Of a DNA stretch of 64,000 nucleotides, positions 2,806 to 61,320 are shown piece after piece; position 1 is the stretch's first letter, and each line of letters begins with the position of its first letter. The notes beneath the pieces were generated by a model, which made no database searches, was not told where the DNA came from, and saw only the letters and a program-made list of their open reading frames with translations. The position numbers and the translations under genes are program-made. The stretch comes from Escherichia coli (GTDB lineage: Bacteria > Pseudomonadota > Gammaproteobacteria > Enterobacterales > Enterobacteriaceae), in the NCBI RefSeq assembly GCF_003018255.1, contig NZ_CP027440.1. One strand, 5' to 3'.

Positions 2806-3275
2806 ATCCCGTATGCCACAGACCCGGCAGGCAACCGCCTGCCCGACCCGGAGCTGCACCCGGACAGCACCCTCAGCATGTGGCCGGATAACCGTATCGC
2901 CCGTGACGCGCACTATCTTTACCGGTATGACCGTCACGGCAGGCTGACAGAGAAAACCGACCTCATCCCGGAAGGGGTTATCCGCACGGATGATGAGCGG
3001 ACTCACCGGTACCATTACGACAGCCGGCACCGGCTGGTGCACTACACGCGGACACAATATGCAGAGCCGCTGGTCGAAAGCCGCTATCTTTACGACCCGC
3101 TGGGCCGCAGGGTGGCAAAACGGGTGTGGCGGCGTGAACGGGACCTGACGGGCTGGATGTCGCTGTCACGGAAACCGGAAGTGACCTGGTACGGCTGGGA
3201 CGGCGACCGGCTGACCACGATACAGAACGACAGAACCCGCATCCAGACGGTTTATCAGCCGGGGAGCTTCACGCC
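2806..3275 (+). pseudogene. Orphan rhs core fragment, near-identical duplicate of window positions about 938-1395
   Basis: Translation of 2878-3275 matches the rhs ORF almost residue-for-residue ([26 protein letters not shown]...[10 protein letters not shown]); homology breaks at 3275 where the H-rpt sequence starts. Confidence 0.85.
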
Positions 3276-18082: not shown

Positions 18083-18130
18083 TTATTCTTGCAGAAAGCA
18101 GGGTAGCGATAACGCTACCCTGCTTTACTT

Positions 18131-23809: not shown

Positions 23810-23894
23810 TGCGTTAGATGATGGCTATCTCACTCCAGTCAGAGCCACCAACTCAGGGCTGGAAAGTAAAAAACCGACGCAAAGTCGGTTTTTT
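23810..23894 (+). ncRNA. agrA: agrA-like small RNA (dinQ-homologous antisense repeat)
   Basis: Repeat unit sharing GCTATCTCACTCC with dinQ (antisense) and ending in terminator CCGACGCAAAGTCGG plus TTTTTT; ends approximate. Confidence 0.65.
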
Positions 23895-24043
23895 ACATCC
23901 GGATTCGGACAAGGCCTGGTACGGCAGCGACCCGATGAAAGTATATAAATCCTCTTTCACCAACATGTATAGCAAACTGTCCCTCCGCCAGCTGAAGAAA
24001 TCGCTAACGCTTGCAATGTTAGCCACTGGCTAATAGTATTGAA

Positions 24044-24128
24044 CCGTTAGATGTGGGCATTCTCACTCCAGCCAGAGCCACCAACTCAGGGCTGGAAAGT
24101 AAAAAACCGACGCAAAGTCGGTTTTTTT
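24044..24128 (+). ncRNA. agrB: agrB-like small RNA (antisense regulator of dinQ)
   Basis: Second repeat unit; carries GCATTCTCACTCC exactly complementary to dinQ 23558-23570; same terminator hairpin plus T7. Confidence 0.65.
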
Positions 24129-38495: not shown

Positions 38496-39488
38496 GTGCT
38501 CAAGGATTCACTCTCTTCCGCCAGGGTCTTTATGGGGCTATCACTATTATTGCTAGCTCTGGTGCTGTTTGGTGCCAGTCAGGGAGCGTTAAAGATCAGT
38601 TTTGATGCCCTTTTTGATGAGGAATACCGCGATATCTGGCTCAATATTCGTCTACCACGGGTTTTGCTGGCGGTGCTGGTAGGTGCAGCGTTGGCAACCG
38701 CCGGGGTAATTATGCAGGGGCTTTTTCGCAACCCAATGGCTGACCCTGGATTACTTGGCGTCAGTAGCGGTTCTGCATTAATGGTTGGCGTTGCTATTGT
38801 GCTGCCCTTCTCCTTCCCAGTGGTGCTGGTGCTCTATGAGCAAATGGTGTTTGCCATTGCCGGAAGTTTAGTGGTCTGCACCATCATTTTTCTCATCACG
38901 CAGCGCCATCGCGATGGCAGCATGATGCAATTATTACTCGCCGGTATCGCCATCAATGCCCTGTGCGGCGCAGCGATCGGCATCCTGAGCTATATCGGCG
39001 ATGAGCAGCAGCTACGACAACTCACATTGTGGATGATGGGCAATCTTGGACAGGCGCAATGGCCGACGTTATTGGTTGCCAGTTCATTCATCCTACCGGC
39101 CATTATCGCAACAACTTGTCTCGCCGGAACGCTGAATTTACTGCAGCTCGGTGATGAAGAAGCCCATTACCTCGGCGTGAACGTTAAGCGTAAACGCCAG
39201 CAATTACTGTTAGTGAGCTCACTGCTCGTTGGTGCCGCCGTATCGGTAAGCGGCATTATCGGCTTTATTGGCCTGGTGATCCCGCATCTGATTCGCATGA
39301 CTACCGGAGCAAATCACCGCTGGCTAATCCCTTGCTCCGCCCTCGCCGGAGCCTGTTTATTGCTGATGGCAGACACGCTTGCCCGCACGCTGGTACAGCC
39401 AGCAGAAATGCCCGTGGGATTATTAACCAGCCTGCTTGGTGGTCCTTATTTTATGTGGTTGATTCTGCGCAACCGGAGGATCACATGA
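38496..39488 (+). CDS. chuU: Haem ABC transporter permease (FecCD family)
   Basis: 330 aa, GTG start, polytopic. Confidence 0.85.
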
Positions 39489-40255
39489 TCAGCGCCCAGA
39501 ATCTGGTTTATAGCCTTCAGGGGCGGCGTCTGACTGATAATGTCTCGCTGACTTTTCCCGGTGGGGAAATTGTTGCCATTCTCGGCCCTAATGGTGCGGG
39601 AAAATCTACGCTGCTTCGCCAGTTAACCGGCTATCTTCAACCTGATAGCGGCGAATGTCGGTTGTTTAATAAGCCATTAAATGAATGGTCGATTACTGAA
39701 CTGGCGAAACACCGGGCCGTGATGCGTCAAAATAGCCACATGGCGTTTCCATTCAGCGTACAAGAAGTTATCCAGATGGGGCGGCATCCGCATCGCACTG
39801 GTAATCAGGATAATGAAACAGCACAAATAATGGCGTTATGTGACTGTCAGGCGTTAGCAAACCGCGACTATCGGCAATTATCCGGTGGTGAACAACAGCG
39901 CGTACAATTAGCGCGCCTGCTGGTGCAACTCTGGGAACCAACTCCCTCACCGAAATGGTTATTTCTTGATGAACCAACTTCGGCGCTGGATATTCACCAT
40001 CAGCAGCACTTGTTCCGTTTATTACGCCAGTTAGTTCACGAACGGCAGTTCAATGTTTGCTGCGTATTGCACGATCTAAATCTTGCCGCGCGTTATGCAG
40101 ACCGTATTGTATTAATGCAAAAAGGAAAGGTTATCGCAAATGGTAAACCACAGGACGTATTGACACAGCAGGCGCTGACCATGCTTTACGGCGCGGATAT
40201 TACCGTACTTAAAGATCCTGCCAACCATTCACCCCTGATCGTCCTCGATCATTAA
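39485..40255 (+). CDS. chuV: Haem ABC transporter ATP-binding protein
   Basis: Start set at [16 protein letters not shown] overlapping the chuU stop (ATGA); Walker [10 protein letters not shown] and signature LSGGEQQR. Confidence 0.85.
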
Positions 40256-40306
40256 AACCAACAGGAGTACCGCACTGGTACTCCTGCGAATAAATAACTA
40301 TACAGA

Positions 40307-40954
40307 TTAGCTAATTGAAACGCCTTTCACCCCTGCCATACCTTTTAATAATCGCAACAGATCTTCTATCGACGTCGTGGCATGAAGCTGGATATCAATG
40401 GCGACCACTTCATGATCTTCATTTTCCTGCAACGAAACTAAATCCGTTTTTATTTTTTGCTGCTTAAACCAGTCGAGCATTGATACCGTATTACCGTTCA
40501 CTAATGTCAGCTGTAAATGGTAATTTTTGTTCATCAGGCGGAAGGTTAATTGATGGAAGACTTCCAGCACCAGCAAGGTCATCACTGAACCATAAATACC
40601 CAGTTCGTACATACCGCTGCCAATAACCATACCAATGGCGGCGGTCACCCAGATATCCGCTGCCGTCGTCAGACCTACAATATTTTGGTTACGAACGAGA
40701 ATGTTACCTGCACCGATAAACCCGACGCCCGTCACAACCTGAGCAGCAATACGGCTGGGGTCCAGTCCGACGTGACCTAAAGACAGCACGTCAGCAAAAC
40801 CATATTTCGAAACAATCATAAACAGGGCGCTTCCCATGCCAATTAATACATGTGTGCGTAACCCTGCTCCTTTGCCGCGCATTTGCCTTTCCATGCCAAT
40901 AGCGCCACAGGCAATTACCGCAAGTATAAGTCGTATAATAAATTCTGCTGTCAT
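40307..40954 (-). CDS. yhiD: MgtC-family inner membrane protein
   Basis: Start set at MTAEFIIRLILAVIACGAIGMERQ (215 aa). Confidence 0.85.
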   Translation of the reverse strand: MTAEFIIRLILAVIACGAIGMERQMRGKGAGLRTHVLIGMGSALFMIVSKYGFADVLSLGHVGLDPSRIAAQVVTGVGFIGAGNILVRNQNIVGLTTAADIWVTAAIGMVIGSGMYELGIYGSVMTLLVLEVFHQLTFRLMNKNYHLQLTLVNGNTVSMLDWFKQQKIKTDLVSLQENEDHEVVAIDIQLHATTSIEDLLRLLKGMAGVKGVSIS

Positions 40955-41017
40955 ATAAAAATGCAAAAAGGAGCAGCAAGATGGCTCAACTTGCTACTCC
41001 TTTTTACTTGTACCTCA

Positions 41018-41344
41018 TTAATTCGGCAAGTCATTAGATGCTTGATTTTTGAAGGTATACAAATTTTTCTGCGGGTTTTTCTTGCAGTATTCGATCACTT
41101 TAGGAATTTGAGTGAGATCGGTTTCATTTAAAGTAACGGTATCGCCACCTTTATATACTGTTTCTTCATGCAGCATCCACCACGCAACTGGTGTCATTGC
41201 TTTTGGATTCAGATCAATAAATTCCTGGCAGGTCATATCTTTAGCGGATTCATTGGCTGCCAGCGCAGATTGTGCGTTCACCAGTGACAAAGCCGCTACA
41301 GCGCCCATAAAAATAAACGCTTTACGGAGAGATGAAATGTTCAT
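41018..41344 (-). CDS. hdeB: Acid stress periplasmic chaperone HdeB
   Basis: Start set at MNISSLRKAFIFMGAVAALSLVNA (108 aa). Confidence 0.9.
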   Translation of the reverse strand: MNISSLRKAFIFMGAVAALSLVNAQSALAANESAKDMTCQEFIDLNPKAMTPVAWWMLHEETVYKGGDTVTLNETDLTQIPKVIEYCKKNPQKNLYTFKNQASNDLPN

Positions 41345-41459
41345 TTTGTAACCCATTCAATATAGAGATTATATACAAACAGGAGGAATAGCTGCTTTTA
41401 AAGAAGATATTCCGGCCTGTTCAATATGCAAGGAAATACGATGTAACGCATTCCCGGAA

Positions 41460-41792
41460 TTACATATCTTTCTTAATTTTGTCCCATTCGCCTTTAACTT
41501 TATCTTTAAAGCTGGCTTTTTTATCCTGAGTACAAGCCTGAACGATAGCTGGGGTTACGGTTGCAATACCCTGAACATCTAAAACCGCATCTTCTGGTTT
41601 ATCTTTGTTGTTCAGTGCTTCAGCAAAACCAACTGCAGTTGGCTGGAAGGATTCGTCCACAGCCAGGAAATCTTCACAGGTCCAGGAGTTGACCGGTTTT
41701 TTGTTATCAGCTGCTTTTTGTGCATCCGCTGCATTGCTCACTACTGGCAGAAGAAGCAGACCACCAAGAATAACGCCTAATACTTTTTTCAT
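41460..41792 (-). CDS. hdeA: Acid stress periplasmic chaperone HdeA
   Basis: 110 aa, signal peptide then ADAQKAADNKKPVNSWTCEDFL. Confidence 0.95.
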   Translation of the reverse strand: MKKVLGVILGGLLLLPVVSNAADAQKAADNKKPVNSWTCEDFLAVDESFQPTAVGFAEALNNKDKPEDAVLDVQGIATVTPAIVQACTQDKKASFKDKVKGEWDKIKKDM

Positions 41793-42046
41793 CGTAATAT
41801 CCTCAACTATAAAGTGAAAGAGCCGTCACGAATCAATTTCGACACTGAGGTTATAACCTGGTTTTCTGTATATGTCATGTTGATGGAAAATATCAAAATC
41901 AGATATTTTTATTTCAATACAATGAGTTACAGACGCATCAGATACTGTAATTAGGAAATTTTTATTAAATCGACTGCATTCTTACACGCGTTTTTGGCAT
42001 AGATTGATAGCAGGGGATTTTCTTCTTAATTTTATAGGGTGGTTCT

Positions 42047-42619
42047 ATGTTATATATAGATAAGGCAACAATTTTGAAGTTTGATCTGGAGATGCTTAAA
42101 AAACATCGCAGAGCAATCCAGTTTATTGCCGTGCTGCTGTTTATCGTCGGGTTGCTGTGTATCAGTTTTCCGTTCGTCTCTGGCGACATTTTAAGCACAG
42201 TAGTGGGTGCATTATTAATCTGCTCGGGCATTGCGCTTATTGTCGGGCTATTCAGCAACCGCAGTCATAATTTCTGGCCGGTATTATCCGGTTTCCTCGT
42301 CGCAGTCGCCTATTTATTGATCGGCTATTTCTTCATCCGCGCACCAGAGCTGGGCATTTTTGCCATTGCGGCATTTATTGCCGGTTTGTTCTGTGTGGCA
42401 GGGGTTATTCGCCTGATGAGTTGGTATCGTCAGCGTTCAATGAAAGGCAGTTGGCTACAGCTCGTTATTGGTGTGCTGGATATCGTCATTGCCTGGATAT
42501 TCCTTGGTGCTACGCCGATGGTGTCGGTAACGCTGGTTTCCACACTGGTGGGAATTGAACTGATATTTAGCGCCGCCAGTCTGTTCAGCTTCGCCAGTTT
42601 GTTCGTTAAAAAGCAATAA
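42047..42619 (+). CDS. hdeD: Acid-resistance membrane protein HdeD
   Basis: 190 aa multi-TM protein divergent from hdeAB. Confidence 0.9.
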   Translation: MLYIDKATILKFDLEMLKKHRRAIQFIAVLLFIVGLLCISFPFVSGDILSTVVGALLICSGIALIVGLFSNRSHNFWPVLSGFLVAVAYLLIGYFFIRAPELGIFAIAAFIAGLFCVAGVIRLMSWYRQRSMKGSWLQLVIGVLDIVIAWIFLGATPMVSVTLVSTLVGIELIFSAASLFSFASLFVKKQ

Positions 42620-43417
42620 TTATCCCTATTTCCACCTGGATCATAGTCACATTAAGTGACTATGATCCAGTTAATACTCTCTTAGCTATACAGTGTTTCA
42701 GTTCAATTACGCACTATCATTGAAACAATTGCCTGCTGTTGATTATTTCAACCTACTGAATTTAATCTGATTTTTTTCGTTCCATGGCAAATTAGCCATT
42801 TCAAACATTATCATGGCTGATATTTTCCGTGGTCAGGTTTAATGTTTTAAAAGTGCTGTGGGAAAGTGAACAAAGAGTTCCGTAAGCGTTGATGCTATGG
42901 GCGGTTAAATAAGTAATCCGGGTTCATTTTTTTGCAACTGGCGTTGATTACATTGCATAAATATCCGTGTCTCCAGACGCTATATAAAAACCTGAAGACA
43001 TGAATGAGTTATTTAATCAGGTAATTTCAATGCGTTAAAAGAAAGCTGGCAATCCAATTGCCAGCCTAAGTCGAAACAAGGAGACTCGATATTTAAATCG
43101 GATTACATTTTAACTTTAGTAATATTCTTCAGAGATCACAAACTGGTTATTGATAACTTATTCTTGGGCAGTAATCCGCAAAAGTTAACCTTTTGTTTAC
43201 TAGTTACAAACTGATAACAACCAGGAATCTTACTTAGGACCAATATATGGAGTGCGTGATGGATAAATCTGAAGTATTGATTAGTGTTAATAGACGTATT
43301 AGTTCACGAAGGGCAAAGTTCTTATAGGCGTTTACTATATTGAACAACGATTCGGACAAGGATGTAAATAATGAAAAGGATGACATGTTCGAAACGATAA
43401 CGGCTAAGGAGCAAGTT

Positions 43418-43945
43418 ATGATTTTTCTCATGACGAAAGATTCTTTTCTTTTACAGGGCTTTTGGCAGTTGAAAGATAATCACGAAATGATAAAAATCAA
43501 TTCCCTGTCAGAGATCAAAAAAGTAGGCAATAACCCCTTCAAGGTTATCATTGATACCTATCACAATCATATCCTTGATGAAGAAGCGATTAAATTTCTG
43601 GAGAAATTAGATGCCGAGAGAATTATTGTTTTGGCACCTTATCACATCAGTAAACTAAAAGCTAAAGCGCCTATTTATTTTGTCAGCCGCAAAGAAAGTA
43701 TCAAAAATCTTCTTGAGATTACTTATGGTAAACACTTGCCCCATAAGAATTCACAATTATGTTTTTCACATAATCAGTTCAAAATTATGCAACTGATTCT
43801 GAAAAATAAAAATGAAAGCAATATCACGTCGACGCTCAATATTTCGCAACAAACATTAAAGATTCAGAAATTCAACATTATGTACAAACTGAAACTAAGA
43901 CGTATGAGCGACATCGTCACCCTGGGTATCACATCTTATTTTTAG
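43418..43945 (+). CDS. gadE: LuxR-family acid resistance activator GadE
   Basis: Start set at MIFLMTKDSFLLQGFWQL (175 aa); the ORF track's 201-aa form carries a 26-codon extension. Confidence 0.9.
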   Translation: MIFLMTKDSFLLQGFWQLKDNHEMIKINSLSEIKKVGNNPFKVIIDTYHNHILDEEAIKFLEKLDAERIIVLAPYHISKLKAKAPIYFVSRKESIKNLLEITYGKHLPHKNSQLCFSHNQFKIMQLILKNKNESNITSTLNISQQTLKIQKFNIMYKLKLRRMSDIVTLGITSYF

Positions 43946-44283
43946 TCAGGACATAAGCAACTGAAATTGATGGCTGGCATGACGAGGGATGCAGATGCTG
44001 ATTTCATTACCCCCGGTGATTACTAAAGGAGAGGCGAAAACGACTTTATTCCCCTGGTATATGTATCCACCAGTAGAACCCTTCGTTGCCCGAATGCTGG
44101 CAGGAACTGTTGGCAGAACGGCAACATTTTTTTTGTCGTTGACCTCACCATGTCGATCACTGTGCCTGTATCCCACCTTACTGGCTGACAACCCCACTAT
44201 GCCGCTGGTCTGTAAATCCCTCATATCTCTCCTCGCGCGCAATTTAAAGAACCGTTATTTCTCAAGAATTTTCAGGGACTAAA

Positions 44284-45441
44284 ATGAACAGAAGAAGAAA
44301 GCTGTTAATACCGTTGTTATTCTGCGGCGCGATGCTCACCGCCTGCGATGACAAATCGGCGGAAAACGCCGCCGCCATGACGCCTGAGGTCGGTGTCGTC
44401 ACACTCTCCCCCGGTTCGGTCAATGTGTTGAGCGAATTGCCTGGTAGAACCGTTCCTTATGAAGTTGCCGAGATACGTCCCCAGGTGGGCGGTATTATCA
44501 TTAAACGCAACTTTATCGAAGGCGATAAAGTGAACCAGGGCGATTCGCTGTATCAGATTGATCCTGCGCCTTTACAGGCAGAGCTGAACTCCGCCAAAGG
44601 CTCGCTGGCGAAAGCGCTCTCTACCGCCAGCAATGCCCGCATCACCTTTAACCGCCAGGCATCGTTGCTGAAGACCAACTACGTTAGCCGTCAGGATTAC
44701 GACACCGCGCGCACCCAGTTGAATGAAGCAGAAGCCAATGTCACCGTCGCCAAAGCGGCTGTTGAACAGGCGACTATCAACCTGCAATACGCAAATGTCA
44801 CCTCGCCGATTACGGGCGTCAGCGGGAAATCGTCGGTGACCGTCGGCGCACTCGTTACCGCTAATCAGGCAGATTCGCTGGTTACCGTACAACGTCTGGA
44901 CCCGATTTATGTCGATCTCACGCAGTCGGTGCAGGATTTCTTGCGCATGAAAGAAGAGGTCGCCAGTGGGCAAATCAAACAGGTTCAGGGCAGTACGCCA
45001 GTACAGCTCAATCTGGAAAATGGTAAACGTTACAGCCAGACCGGCACGCTGAAATTCTCCGACCCGACGGTGGATGAAACCACGGGCTCCGTGACGTTAC
45101 GGGCGATTTTCCCCAACCCAAATGGTGACTTGCTGCCTGGCATGTACGTCACGGCATTAGTGGATGAAGGTAGCCGCCAGAATGTATTACTGGTGCCGCA
45201 GGAAGGCGTCACCCACAACGCCCAGGGTAAAGCAACGGCGCTCATTCTGGATAAAGACGATGTTGTGCAGCTACGCGAAATTGAAGCCAGCAAAGCCATC
45301 GGCGACCAGTGGGTTGTCACCTCTGGCTTGCAGGCTGGCGATCGGGTGATCGTTTCCGGTTTGCAACGCATTCGTCCGGGTATCAAAGCACGAGCAATTT
45401 CCTCCAGCCAGGAAAACGCCAGCACCGAATCGAAACAATAA
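44284..45441 (+). CDS. mdtE: RND efflux membrane fusion protein
   Basis: 385 aa, lipoprotein signal (LTAC). Confidence 0.9.
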   Translation: MNRRRKLLIPLLFCGAMLTACDDKSAENAAAMTPEVGVVTLSPGSVNVLSELPGRTVPYEVAEIRPQVGGIIIKRNFIEGDKVNQGDSLYQIDPAPLQAELNSAKGSLAKALSTASNARITFNRQASLLKTNYVSRQDYDTARTQLNEAEANVTVAKAAVEQATINLQYANVTSPITGVSGKSSVTVGALVTANQADSLVTVQRLDPIYVDLTQSVQDFLRMKEEVASGQIKQVQGSTPVQLNLENGKRYSQTGTLKFSDPTVDETTGSVTLRAIFPNPNGDLLPGMYVTALVDEGSRQNVLLVPQEGVTHNAQGKATALILDKDDVVQLREIEASKAIGDQWVVTSGLQAGDRVIVSGLQRIRPGIKARAISSSQENASTESKQ

Positions 45442-45465
45442 CGTTGCAGGCTTAAGGGGACTTTC

Positions 45466-48400
45466 ATGGCTAACTATTTTATTGATCGCCCGGTTTTTGC
45501 CTGGGTACTTGCCATTATTATGATGCTTGCAGGTGGTCTGGCGATCATGAACTTACCGGTTGCGCAGTATCCGCAGATTGCGCCACCGACCATTACCGTC
45601 AGCGCAACCTATCCGGGTGCCGATGCGCAAACGGTAGAAGACTCGGTCACTCAGGTGATTGAGCAAAATATGAATGGGCTTGATGGCCTGATGTACATGT
45701 CTTCAACCAGTGATGCGGCGGGTAATGCCTCTATCACTCTGACCTTCGAGACTGGGACATCTCCTGATATCGCACAGGTTCAGGTGCAAAATAAACTGCA
45801 GCTCGCTATGCCTTCATTACCTGAAGCGGTGCAGCAGCAGGGGATTAGCGTCGATAAGTCGAGCAGTAATATCCTGATGGTAGCGGCATTTATTTCTGAT
45901 AACGGCAGCCTCAACCAGTACGATATCGCGGACTATGTAGCGTCTAATATCAAAGACCCGCTAAGCCGTACCGCGGGCGTTGGTAGCGTACAGCTCTTTG
46001 GTTCCGAGTACGCCATGCGTATCTGGCTGGACCCGCAAAAACTCAATAAATATAACCTGGTACCTTCCGATGTTATTTCCCAGATTAAGGTGCAAAATAA
46101 CCAGATTTCCGGTGGTCAACTGGGTGGCATGCCACAGGCGGCAGACCAGCAACTGAACGCCTCGATCATTGTGCAGACGCGTCTGCAAACGCCGGAAGAA
46201 TTTGGCAAAATCCTGTTGAAAGTTCAGCAAGATGGTTCGCAAGTACTGCTGCGTGATGTCGCCCGCGTCGAACTTGGGGCGGAAGATTATTCCACCGTGG
46301 CGCGCTATAACGGCAAACCTGCTGCCGGGATCGCCATCAAACTGGCTACCGGAGCAAACGCCCTGGATACCTCGCGAGCGGTGAAAGAGGAGCTGAACCG
46401 TTTATCGGCTTATTTCCCTGCAAGCCTGAAGACGGTTTATCCTTACGACACCACACCGTTTATCAAAATTTCTATTCAGGAAGTTTTCAAAACGCTGGTT
46501 GAGGCTATCATCCTCGTCTTCCTGGTCATGTATCTGTTTTTGCAGAATTTCCGCGCCACAATCATCCCGACGATTGCCGTACCGGTGGTTATTCTCGGGA
46601 CGTTTGCGATCTTGTCGGCGGTCGGTTTCACCATCAACACGTTAACTATGTTCGGGATGGTGCTGGCGATAGGGTTACTGGTGGATGACGCCATCGTGGT
46701 GGTGGAGAACGTCGAGCGTGTCATTGCGGAAGATAAGCTACCGCCGAAGGAAGCGACGCATAAATCGATGGGGCAGATCCAACGTGCGCTGGTCGGGATT
46801 GCCGTTGTTCTTTCCGCAGTGTTTATGCCGATGGCCTTTATGAGCGGTGCAACCGGGGAGATCTACCGCCAGTTCTCCATCACGCTGATCTCCTCCATGC
46901 TGCTTTCAGTATTTGTGGCAATGAGCCTGACCCCTGCCCTGTGCGCCACCATTCTGAAAGCCGCGCCGGAAGGCGGTCACAAACCTAACGCCCTGTTCGC
47001 ACGCTTCAACACGCTGTTTGAAAAATCAACTCAGCACTATACCGATAGCACCCGCTCGCTGTTGCGTTGTACCGGTCGCTACATGGTGGTCTACCTGCTG
47101 ATTTGCGCCGGGATGGCGGTGCTGTTCCTGCGTACGCCGACCTCTTTCTTACCAGAAGAGGATCAGGGGGTATTTATGACCACCGCGCAGTTACCTTCCG
47201 GTGCCACCATGGTTAACACCACGAAAGTGCTGCAACAGGTGACGGATTATTATCTGACTAAAGAGAAAGATAATGTTCAGTCGGTGTTTACCGTTGGCGG
47301 CTTTGGCTTCAGCGGCCAGGGGCAAAACAACGGCCTGGCGTTTATCAGTCTCAAGCCGTGGTCTGAACGTGTCGGTGAGGAAAACTCGGTTACCGCGATC
47401 ATTCAGCGGGCAATGATTGCGTTAAGCAGTATCAATAAAGCCGTCGTCTTCCCGTTCAACTTACCCGCGGTGGCTGAACTGGGTACCGCGTCAGGTTTTG
47501 ATATGGAACTGCTGGACAACGGCAATCTGGGGCACGAAAAACTGACCCAGGCGCGAAACGAGCTGTTATCACTGGCAGCGCAATCACCGAATCAGGTCAT
47601 CGGGGTACGCCCGAACGGCCTGGAAGATACGCCGATGTTCAAAGTGAACGTCAACGCTGCGAAAGCCGAGGCTATGGGGGTGGCGCTGTCTGATATCAAC
47701 CAGACAATTTCCACCGCCTTCGGCAGCAGCTACGTGAACGACTTCCTCAACCAGGGGCGGGTGAAAAAAGTGTATGTCCAGGCAGGCACGCCGTTCCGTA
47801 TGTTGCCGGATAACATCAACCAATGGTATGTACGCAACGCCTCTGGCACGATGGCACCGCTTTCTGCCTATTCGTCTACCGAATGGACCTATGGTTCACC
47901 GCGACTGGAACGCTACAACGGCATCCCGTCAATGGAGATTTTAGGTGAAGCGGCGGCCGGGAAAAGTACCGGTGACGCCATGAAATTTATGGCAGACCTG
48001 GTCGCTAAACTTCCGGCAGGCGTCGGCTACTCATGGACCGGACTGTCGTATCAGGAAGCGTTATCCTCAAATCAGGCTCCCGCGCTGTATGCCATTTCAC
48101 TGGTCGTGGTGTTCCTCGCCCTCGCCGCACTTTATGAGAGCTGGTCAATTCCGTTCTCGGTGATGTTGGTTGTACCGTTAGGCGTCGTTGGCGCATTAAT
48201 GGCCACCGATCTACGCGGCTTAAGTAATGACGTCTACTTCCAGGTTGGTTTGCTGACCACCATCGGGCTTTCCGCCAAAAACGCCATCCTGATTGTCGAA
48301 TTTGCCGTTGAGATGATGCAGAAAGAAGGGAAAACGCCGATAGAGGCAATCATCGAAGCGGCGCGGATGCGTTTACGCCCAATCCTGATGACCTCTCTGG

Positions 48401-61154: not shown

Positions 61155-61316
61155 GCCTGATGCGCTACGCTTATCAGGCCAGAATTTCCATACAATATAT
61201 TGAATTAGCAAGGATTTGTAAGCCGGAGGCGTTCACGCCGCATCCGGCATGAACAAAGCACACTTTGCCAACAATCTAAATCTGTTTAATTGCCGGATGT
61301 CAGACATCCGGCAATT
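61155..61316. repeat. REP-like palindromes and hairpin between convergent yhjE and yhjG
   Basis: GCCTGATGCGCTACGCTTATCAGGC, GGCGTTCACGCCGCATCCGGC and GCCGGATGTCAGACATCCGGC palindromes. Confidence 0.55.
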
Positions 61317-61320
61317 ATCA

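Follow-up and report, generated by a model that had tools for sequence, protein, structure and literature searches.

Canonical intrinsic terminators place a stable hairpin just past a stop codon and yield a sharp RNA 3' end near the stem, and E. coli RNA polymerase normally requires a U-tract for this mode of termination. The extragenic palindromes known as REP/BIME elements fold once transcribed and act as blocks to 3' exonucleases, often after Rho-terminated genes, and REPs form a multi-copy, G+C-rich family. A third precedent comes from Dar and Sorek (2018), who set intrinsic and Rho-dependent ends apart as two classes and described 144 Rho-dependent termini. At these sites the RNA has a precise end just after a stable stem-loop, with low U content and a mild excess of C over G downstream, while the transcript terminates beyond this point and is then trimmed to the stem by PNPase and RNase II.

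Here, we describe a long, perfect palindrome downstream of hdeD in the acid fitness island of Escherichia coli, within a stretch of 64,000 nucleotides (hereafter the window, to whose positions all coordinates refer unless K-12 is named). An earlier reading of the sequence alone (the original prediction) had proposed either a protein-binding dyad or an RNA hairpin at the hdeD 3' end. The element resembles canonical intrinsic terminators in its stable hairpin just past a stop codon and in the sharp RNA 3' end near its stem, but it differs from them in that the stem is unusually long, with 7 of 15 pairs being G-C, and is followed by no U-tract in eight lineages. It shares with REP/BIME elements its extragenic position and its capacity to fold in the transcript, but is single-copy and A+T-rich. 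At a probability of roughly 0.7, we favour the reading that the hairpin protects the 3' end of an hdeD mRNA whose termination is probably Rho-dependent, as in the class of stem-loops described by Dar and Sorek (2018).

The palindrome and its setting

The acid fitness island runs through the window in the order yhiD (-), hdeB (-), hdeA (-), hdeD (+), a 798-bp spacer, gadE (+) and mdtE/mdtF, with the TAA stop codon of hdeD at 42617-42619 and the gadE ATG at 43418 (+). The features on which the analysis turns are listed here.

42047-42619 (+): hdeD coding sequence, 190 aa, from the open reading frame list; RefSeq annotates the acid-resistance protein HdeD on identical or orthologous DNA
42620-42635 (+): 16-nt spacer from the stop codon to the stem, of low conservation, with K-12 different at 5 of 16 positions
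42636-42650 (+): 5' stem arm, CTGGATCATAGTCAC, from complementarity, with pairing kept via compensatory changes
42651-42655 (+): loop, ATTAA, varying freely among lineages
42656-42670 (+): 3' stem arm, GTGACTATGATCCAG, from complementarity, with pairing likewise kept
42671-42675 (+): expected steady-state 3' end of the hdeD mRNA, transferred from K-12
42671-42770 (+): AT-rich, U-tract-free tract with C over G (C 20, G 12), a putative Rho loading (rut) region

The window contains the 31-mer GGATCATAGTCAC-ATTAA-GTGACTATGATCC a single time, at 42638-42668. The original prediction had correctly recognized this palindrome as perfect, but had placed it at 42637-42667, one base off, and had given it a perfect stem of 13 bp; complementarity in fact continues for two more pairs on each side, and the full element spans 35 bp, with perfect 15-bp arms around a 5-nt loop. 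Its position was as described, just past hdeD and in the part of the gadE upstream region most distant from gadE: the stem begins 16 nt past the hdeD stop, and the centre of the palindrome lies at -765 relative to the gadE ATG. The absence of a following T-run was also borne out, the bases right after the stem being TTAATACTCTCT. The upstream spacer, TTATCCCTATTTCCAC, has no A-tract before the stem, and carries an insertion of 15-16 nt in other Escherichia species. In E. coli, the arms hold two symmetrically placed GATC sites. We assign the hairpin to the 3' untranslated region of hdeD; no named feature is annotated at this position in any record examined.

Departure from chance and copy number

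The palindrome is real and lies far above chance. No other perfect inverted repeat in the 64-kb window (loop of 3-10 nt) is as long, and when the window was simulated 100 times with a first-order Markov model the longest stems measured 8-13 bp, with 13 bp reached only once, in agreement with the earlier statement that the stem is longer than chance. Folded as RNA, a 44-nt segment gave -25.7 kcal/mol (z = -8.8 against shuffles) and a 121-nt context gave -28.7 kcal/mol (z = -4.6), and every orthologous hairpin folds at -18 to -26 kcal/mol.

A 601-bp segment spanning the site had matches in 5412 of the 5426 complete E. coli genomes, in every case chromosomal and adjoining hdeD. Two main haplotypes were found, one, of B2 type, in about 1300 genomes that are at least 99% identical to the window, the other in about 4100 genomes, K-12 included, at about 94%. 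A 51-nt query returned exactly one locus in each of the 5412 genomes, the two "places" reported per genome being both strands of one palindrome. No copies were found on phages, and there were none on plasmids, since three "plasmid" matches proved to be mislabelled chromosomes of 4.8-4.9 Mb; within the window, the arm is unique except for one chance match with three mismatches. A search for the palindrome elsewhere in the genome, which the original prediction had suggested, thus yielded no second locus. REP/BIME membership, which implies many dispersed copies, failed on this result. An Rfam E-value scan of 40000-46000 found no family at the hairpin; its sole credible match was ES205/GadF at 44063-44134, just downstream of gadE (105 bits, E = 2e-18), which coincides with the K-12 gadF sRNA.

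Two records deserve mention in their own right. In E. coli NR1430, whose haplotype is otherwise identical, an IS1 element lies in the hdeD-gadE spacer, about 350-1100 nt past the hdeD stop. An 8.6-kb contig filed under Flavobacterium paronense CECT 8460 has an hdeA-hdeD-gadE region of K-12 type, with single-base indels scattered through it, and is almost certainly E. coli contamination of that assembly.

Conservation of base pairing

Past the hdeD stop, the window and K-12 differ at 5 of the 16 positions ahead of the stem, at 3 of the 5 loop positions and at 17 of the 113 that follow the stem, compared with 2.1% in hdeD and 1.9% in the remaining hdeD-gadE spacer. At the 26 core stem positions, the two are identical. 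Three differences fall in the arms: those at 42637 and 42669 form a compensatory pair (T-A in the window, C-G in K-12), and that at 42670 gives the window a 15th pair, the K-12 stem being 14 bp. The region of about 165 nt at 42620-42783 is a hot spot of haplotype divergence, at 15-30% outside the stem against about 2% around it, and it overlaps the start of the first GadX/W site (42764-42799) and stops before the gadE T3 promoter.

A search at the species level, with HdeD as query, yielded cryptic Escherichia lineages as well as E. whittamii and E. albertii, each of which preserves the hdeA/hdeD/gadE synteny. In lineage E69, E. whittamii, lineage E1V33 and E. albertii, GGATC...GATCC at the outer arms is replaced by GCCTC...GAGGC, such that two adjacent pairs are swapped on both sides, within flanks that are barely alignable. 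The loop reads TTGAT, TTTAT, TTAAT, TCATA, TTGTG, TTGTA or GCACA in other lineages. In a set of 14 distinct sequences, drawn from E. coli haplotypes and from the cryptic lineages, E. whittamii and E. albertii, standard pairs make up 91.8% of cells; sliding the 3' partner lowers this share to 20-46%. Four base pairs are altered on both sides in this set, giving a covariation score that was reached by none of 500 shuffles, with the independent compensatory events numbering few, roughly 3-5. RNAalifold, unprompted, predicted the same helix.

Taken at the level of aligned orthologues, these comparisons show that pairing in the stem is under selection, and because the outer arms are replaced while pairing is kept, it is the helix rather than a recognition sequence that appears to be preserved. 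Wobble pairs do not single out which strand folds: G-U pairs on the plus strand occur in lineages E69 and LR-60, and plus-strand A-C mismatches, equivalent to G-U on the minus strand, occur in E. whittamii, E1V33 and E. albertii. A metagenome scan with a pattern from the hdeD 3' end returned 52 loci, of which roughly half were fortuitous hits to unrelated DNA; together with additional genomes, it contributed only a few new Escherichia variants.

Two further hairpins were noted in passing. In E. coli SCU-316, a single anecdote, hdeD is a frameshifted pseudogene and a small deletion shortens the base of the hairpin to leave a 12-bp stem. In Kluyvera cryocrescens, an unrelated 11-bp hairpin, ACGATCTACCC-GAGC-GGGTAGATCGT (positions 3088-3113 of the locus examined; -19 kcal/mol, no T-run), lies about 20 nt past the stop of an hdeD of 57% identity, where the gadE-like gene is convergent and not co-directional.

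The 3' end of the hdeD mRNA

In K-12 MG1655, hdeD occupies 3656995-3657567 and the hairpin (14-bp stem, loop TTGAT) occupies 3657585-3657617. A Term-seq 3' end at 3657621 (+), with flanking sequence ...GTGACTATGATCCGATTA / ...GGATCATAGTCACTTGATGTGACTATGATCCGATTA, is recorded in supplementary file 1 of Adams et al. 2021 (PMC7815308); this end is 4 nt past the K-12 stem and 54 nt past the hdeD stop. That study classed the end as "orphan"; its "primary" class requires a distance of no more than 50 bp from a gene end, and we ascribe the label to the 54 nt exceeding this cut-off. The end is present in one of three growth-condition sheets, probably M63-glucose as judged from its position in the file (PMC7815308). 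A TRS re-analysis (Supplementary Data 2 of PMC10687069) lists 3657617-3657627, with a peak at 3657621, as "Primary hdeD", in a table that re-analyses published libraries and may not be independent of the Term-seq study. The published K-12 maps, which supply the 3' end mapping suggested in the original prediction, show that the K-12 hdeD 3' end is located 4 nt after the hairpin. By coordinate transfer, K-12 3657621 corresponds to 42673 in the window, 3 nt past the 15-bp stem.

The Term-seq table contains no minus-strand 3' ends near the hairpin, the only one in the spacer being that of ArrS at 3657984/5 (PMC7815308), and we rejected a minus-strand function on this basis. A separate Term-seq end lies inside hdeD, at K-12 3657126 (+), 131 nt into the open reading frame and equivalent to about 42178 in the window; it could represent premature termination or a decay intermediate, possibly tied to the known control by CyaR/RprA. 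The 3' end is not discussed in the paper on sRNA control of hdeD (PMC5861431), and the YdeO paper has nothing on it. In the literature searched, no paper combined hdeD with bicyclomycin (BCM), and the arm sequence retrieved no relevant paper, its matches being human CEACAM1 primers.

Sequence downstream of the stem and the Rho signal

A consensus terminator scan made no call at the hairpin. The eight nucleotides after the stem contain four T in the window and three in K-12, and none of the eight lineages has a U-tract, their tails including TTAATACT, CTAACACC, ATAACACT and GTCATACT; U content is lower still in CTAACACC, ATAACACT and GTCATACT from the other lineages, where the stem is conserved nonetheless. 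A canonical intrinsic terminator, which the original prediction had also set aside, was rejected on the absence of both a scan call and a U run (at least about 5 of 8 after a G+C-rich stem). A canonical example is present in the same region, on the minus strand at 43067-43043, where the hairpin AGGCTGGCAATTGGATTGCCAGCTT followed by TCTTTT forms the 3' end of ArrS, an antisense sRNA of the K-12 annotation that has a very strong Term-seq end and no Rfam match.

Over the first 100 nt past the stem, C exceeds G by 1.7-2.9 fold in all eight lineages, and the bias flips to G over C at +101 to +200. The primary sequence of this downstream tract, 66-68% A+T, has diverged with its C-over-G bias kept. 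In the BCM experiment of Adams et al., a Rho termination region on the plus strand peaks at 3657733, with a Rho score of 6.8 and p = 2e-20 (supplementary file 2, PMC7815308). The peak falls at about 42785 in the window, about 110 nt downstream and just beyond the C-over-G tract at 42671-42770. Reads upstream and downstream numbered 101 and 28 without BCM, and 251 and 475 with it (PMC7815308), within a downstream counting window (800 nt) that spans all gadE promoters. Because the downstream reads (475) then exceed the upstream reads (251), part of the rise must reflect new initiation at de-repressed gadE promoters. The BCM signal, in which any read-through is confounded with such new initiation, would fit the Rho model.

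Proposed mechanism

In the mechanism that we propose, the palindrome would encode the 3'-terminal stem-loop of the hdeD mRNA. RNA polymerase would pass through the hairpin, because no U-tract follows the stem, and Rho would load on the untranslated C-over-G stretch (about 42671-42770) and end transcription diffusely, about 100-200 nt past the stop and ahead of the GadX/W sites as well as of T3 (about 42852), the most distal gadE promoter. The 3'-to-5' exonucleases PNPase and RNase II would digest the tail as far as the 14-15 bp stem, which would block them and leave a sharp, stable 3' end a few nucleotides past its base. The position of the K-12 end is measured; the exonuclease block by the hairpin and Rho as the maker of the primary end are what we infer. 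The hairpin past the Kluyvera hdeD stop, which likewise lacks a T-run, also speaks for this reading.

By its proposed working mode and its testable sequence features, the hdeD hairpin would join the Dar and Sorek class. A stable stem-loop lies directly upstream of the dominant 3' end as measured in K-12, with no U-rich tract after the stem and no A-tract before it, and C exceeds G just downstream (20 to 12 in the window, with the same bias in 8 of 8 lineages). A published BCM-sensitive region lies downstream and may correspond to the read-through of that class, its signal at hdeD being confounded by the adjacent gadE promoters. Exonuclease trimming at hdeD may be presumed by analogy with that class.

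A more elaborate version, which we consider decidedly improbable, would make the site a regulated gate at which acid or stationary phase relieves termination and lets GadE-activated hdeD transcription run into gadE-mdtEF. We keep it in view because BCM strongly raises the downstream plus-strand signal and the composition of the region is conserved.

Alternative explanations

Apart from a protective stem-loop on a Rho-terminated mRNA, two other origins of the RNA end were weighed. It is fairly unlikely that the element is a U-poor intrinsic terminator, whose hairpin alone, maybe with NusA/NusG, stops polymerase and leaves Rho to mop up read-through. Such a terminator would account for the very stable stem (-25 kcal/mol), the sharpness of the K-12 3' end only 4 nt past it, and the four T among the first eight nucleotides after the window stem, and the gadE promoters confound the Rho signal that speaks for the favoured reading. 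However, the consensus scan passes over the site, tails in other lineages are even poorer in U though the stem is conserved, what is conserved downstream is the C-over-G bias and not U richness, and the dependence of E. coli polymerase on a U-tract weighs against it in general. Quite unlikely, in turn, is a processing end made independently of Rho, in which an endonuclease such as RNase E cleaves transcripts heading toward gadE within the AU-rich spacer, after which they are trimmed to the hairpin. The conserved excess of C over G right after the stem is predicted by Rho loading and is not needed for RNase E, the published Rho region peaks at the matching place, and the SMRT-Cappable-seq supplements contain no hdeD entry, hence no hdeD-gadE co-transcript to look up; still, the downstream sequence is AU-rich (66-68% A+T), the hairpin would be an exonuclease barrier whatever makes the entry site, and the evidence for Rho is ambiguous.

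An element that acts at the DNA level on gadE or hdeD transcription, be it a regulator's dyad operator, a Dam (GATC) pair, a cruciform or a boundary, is very improbable. The perfect dyad symmetry, the two symmetric GATC sites in the E. coli arms and the location within the 798-bp region treated in the literature as the gadE control region are what such an element would lead one to expect, and the wobble and mismatch evidence points to neither RNA strand. Nevertheless, arms of 15 bp far exceed typical half-sites, the central 5 bp vary freely, the sequence goes unmentioned in the literature searched, and in four other lineages the outer arms, including both GATC, have become GCCTC/GAGGC with pairing kept. 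Published GadE/GadW/GadX ChIP-exo data, in U00096.2 coordinates (an offset of 1977, checked by the gadE site positions reproducing the -566 start site), have no site at the hairpin. The nearest ChIP-exo sites are at 42764-42799 (GadX/W) and 42848-42872, the first starting about 95 bp downstream of the hairpin, and the most distal gadE start, T3 at -566 (42852), is 199 bp downstream. A GadE/W/X operator was rejected on the lack of a ChIP-exo site and on the replacement, with compensation, of the outer half-site, and a Dam/GATC switch on the loss of both GATC in E69, E. whittamii, E1V33 and E. albertii with the helix kept. Inspection also dismissed a CRP-like site, the centre TCAC-N5-GTGA having the everted order relative to TGTGA-N6-TCACA. 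That the palindrome has no function, as a chance event or as the scar of a mobile element or repeat of REP or MITE type, is extremely improbable: for all that it bears no annotated name and no Rfam match, it is far above chance, is single-copy per genome with none on plasmids or phages (on which ground a repeat or mobile-element origin was rejected), and forms an island of conservation with compensatory changes in a fast-diverging spacer.

Of the two functions named in the original prediction, it is accordingly the RNA hairpin at the hdeD 3' end that the compensatory changes across Escherichia and the K-12 end 4 nt past the stem sustain. The protein-binding dyad fares poorly, with its outer half-site replaced while pairing is kept, and the proposed look at ChIP data for acid-resistance regulators found GadE, GadW and GadX without a site there.

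Other hairpins in the window

Several other features of the window came to light. Two 14-bp perfect hairpins, AAAGCAGGGTAGCG-ATAA-CGCTACCCTGCTTT at 18095-18126 and TAATTGCCGGATGT-CAG-ACATCCGGCAATTA at 61287-61317, are probably bidirectional terminators or 3' barriers, because each lies between convergent open reading frame ends (18082+/18131- and 61142+/61321-, respectively). An ABC-ATPase open reading frame (39332-40286) adjoins yhiD where K-12 has dctR, which suggests an island insertion in this strain type, presumably the chu haem-uptake cluster; past the stop codon of this open reading frame lies a 10-bp hairpin (40262-40286). Near-identical terminator hairpins, AAAAAACCGACGCAAAGTCGGTTTTTT, at 23866-23896 and 24101-24127, about 235 bp apart, look like the agrA/agrB pair, and the Term-seq table ties the same sequence to the sRNA agrB.

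Implications

The K-12 3' end was already present in supplementary tables, and we did not find the hairpin, its covariation or the terminator-zone reading described in the literature searched. Our analysis would assign a function to the most conspicuous palindrome of the acid fitness island, and would explain a K-12 end listed as "orphan" as the terminus of the hdeD mRNA. Within the 798-bp "gadE promoter/sensory integration region" that reporter fusions have employed, the first ~165 bp are probably better read as an hdeD 3' UTR and terminator zone, which bears on the design of gadE promoter constructs and on how phylogroup divergence in this region is read. Were termination here regulated, read-through would add a positive-feedback arm to GadE control, and the first ~165 bp of the "gadE promoter" would be an hdeD terminator/insulator whose strength tunes the circuit. 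On the reading that we favour, of a protective stem-loop at the end of a probably Rho-terminated mRNA, the hdeD hairpin would be an ordinary case that changes no concept, while offering a clean instance from nature of compensatory evolution in a protective stem-loop of the Rho type.
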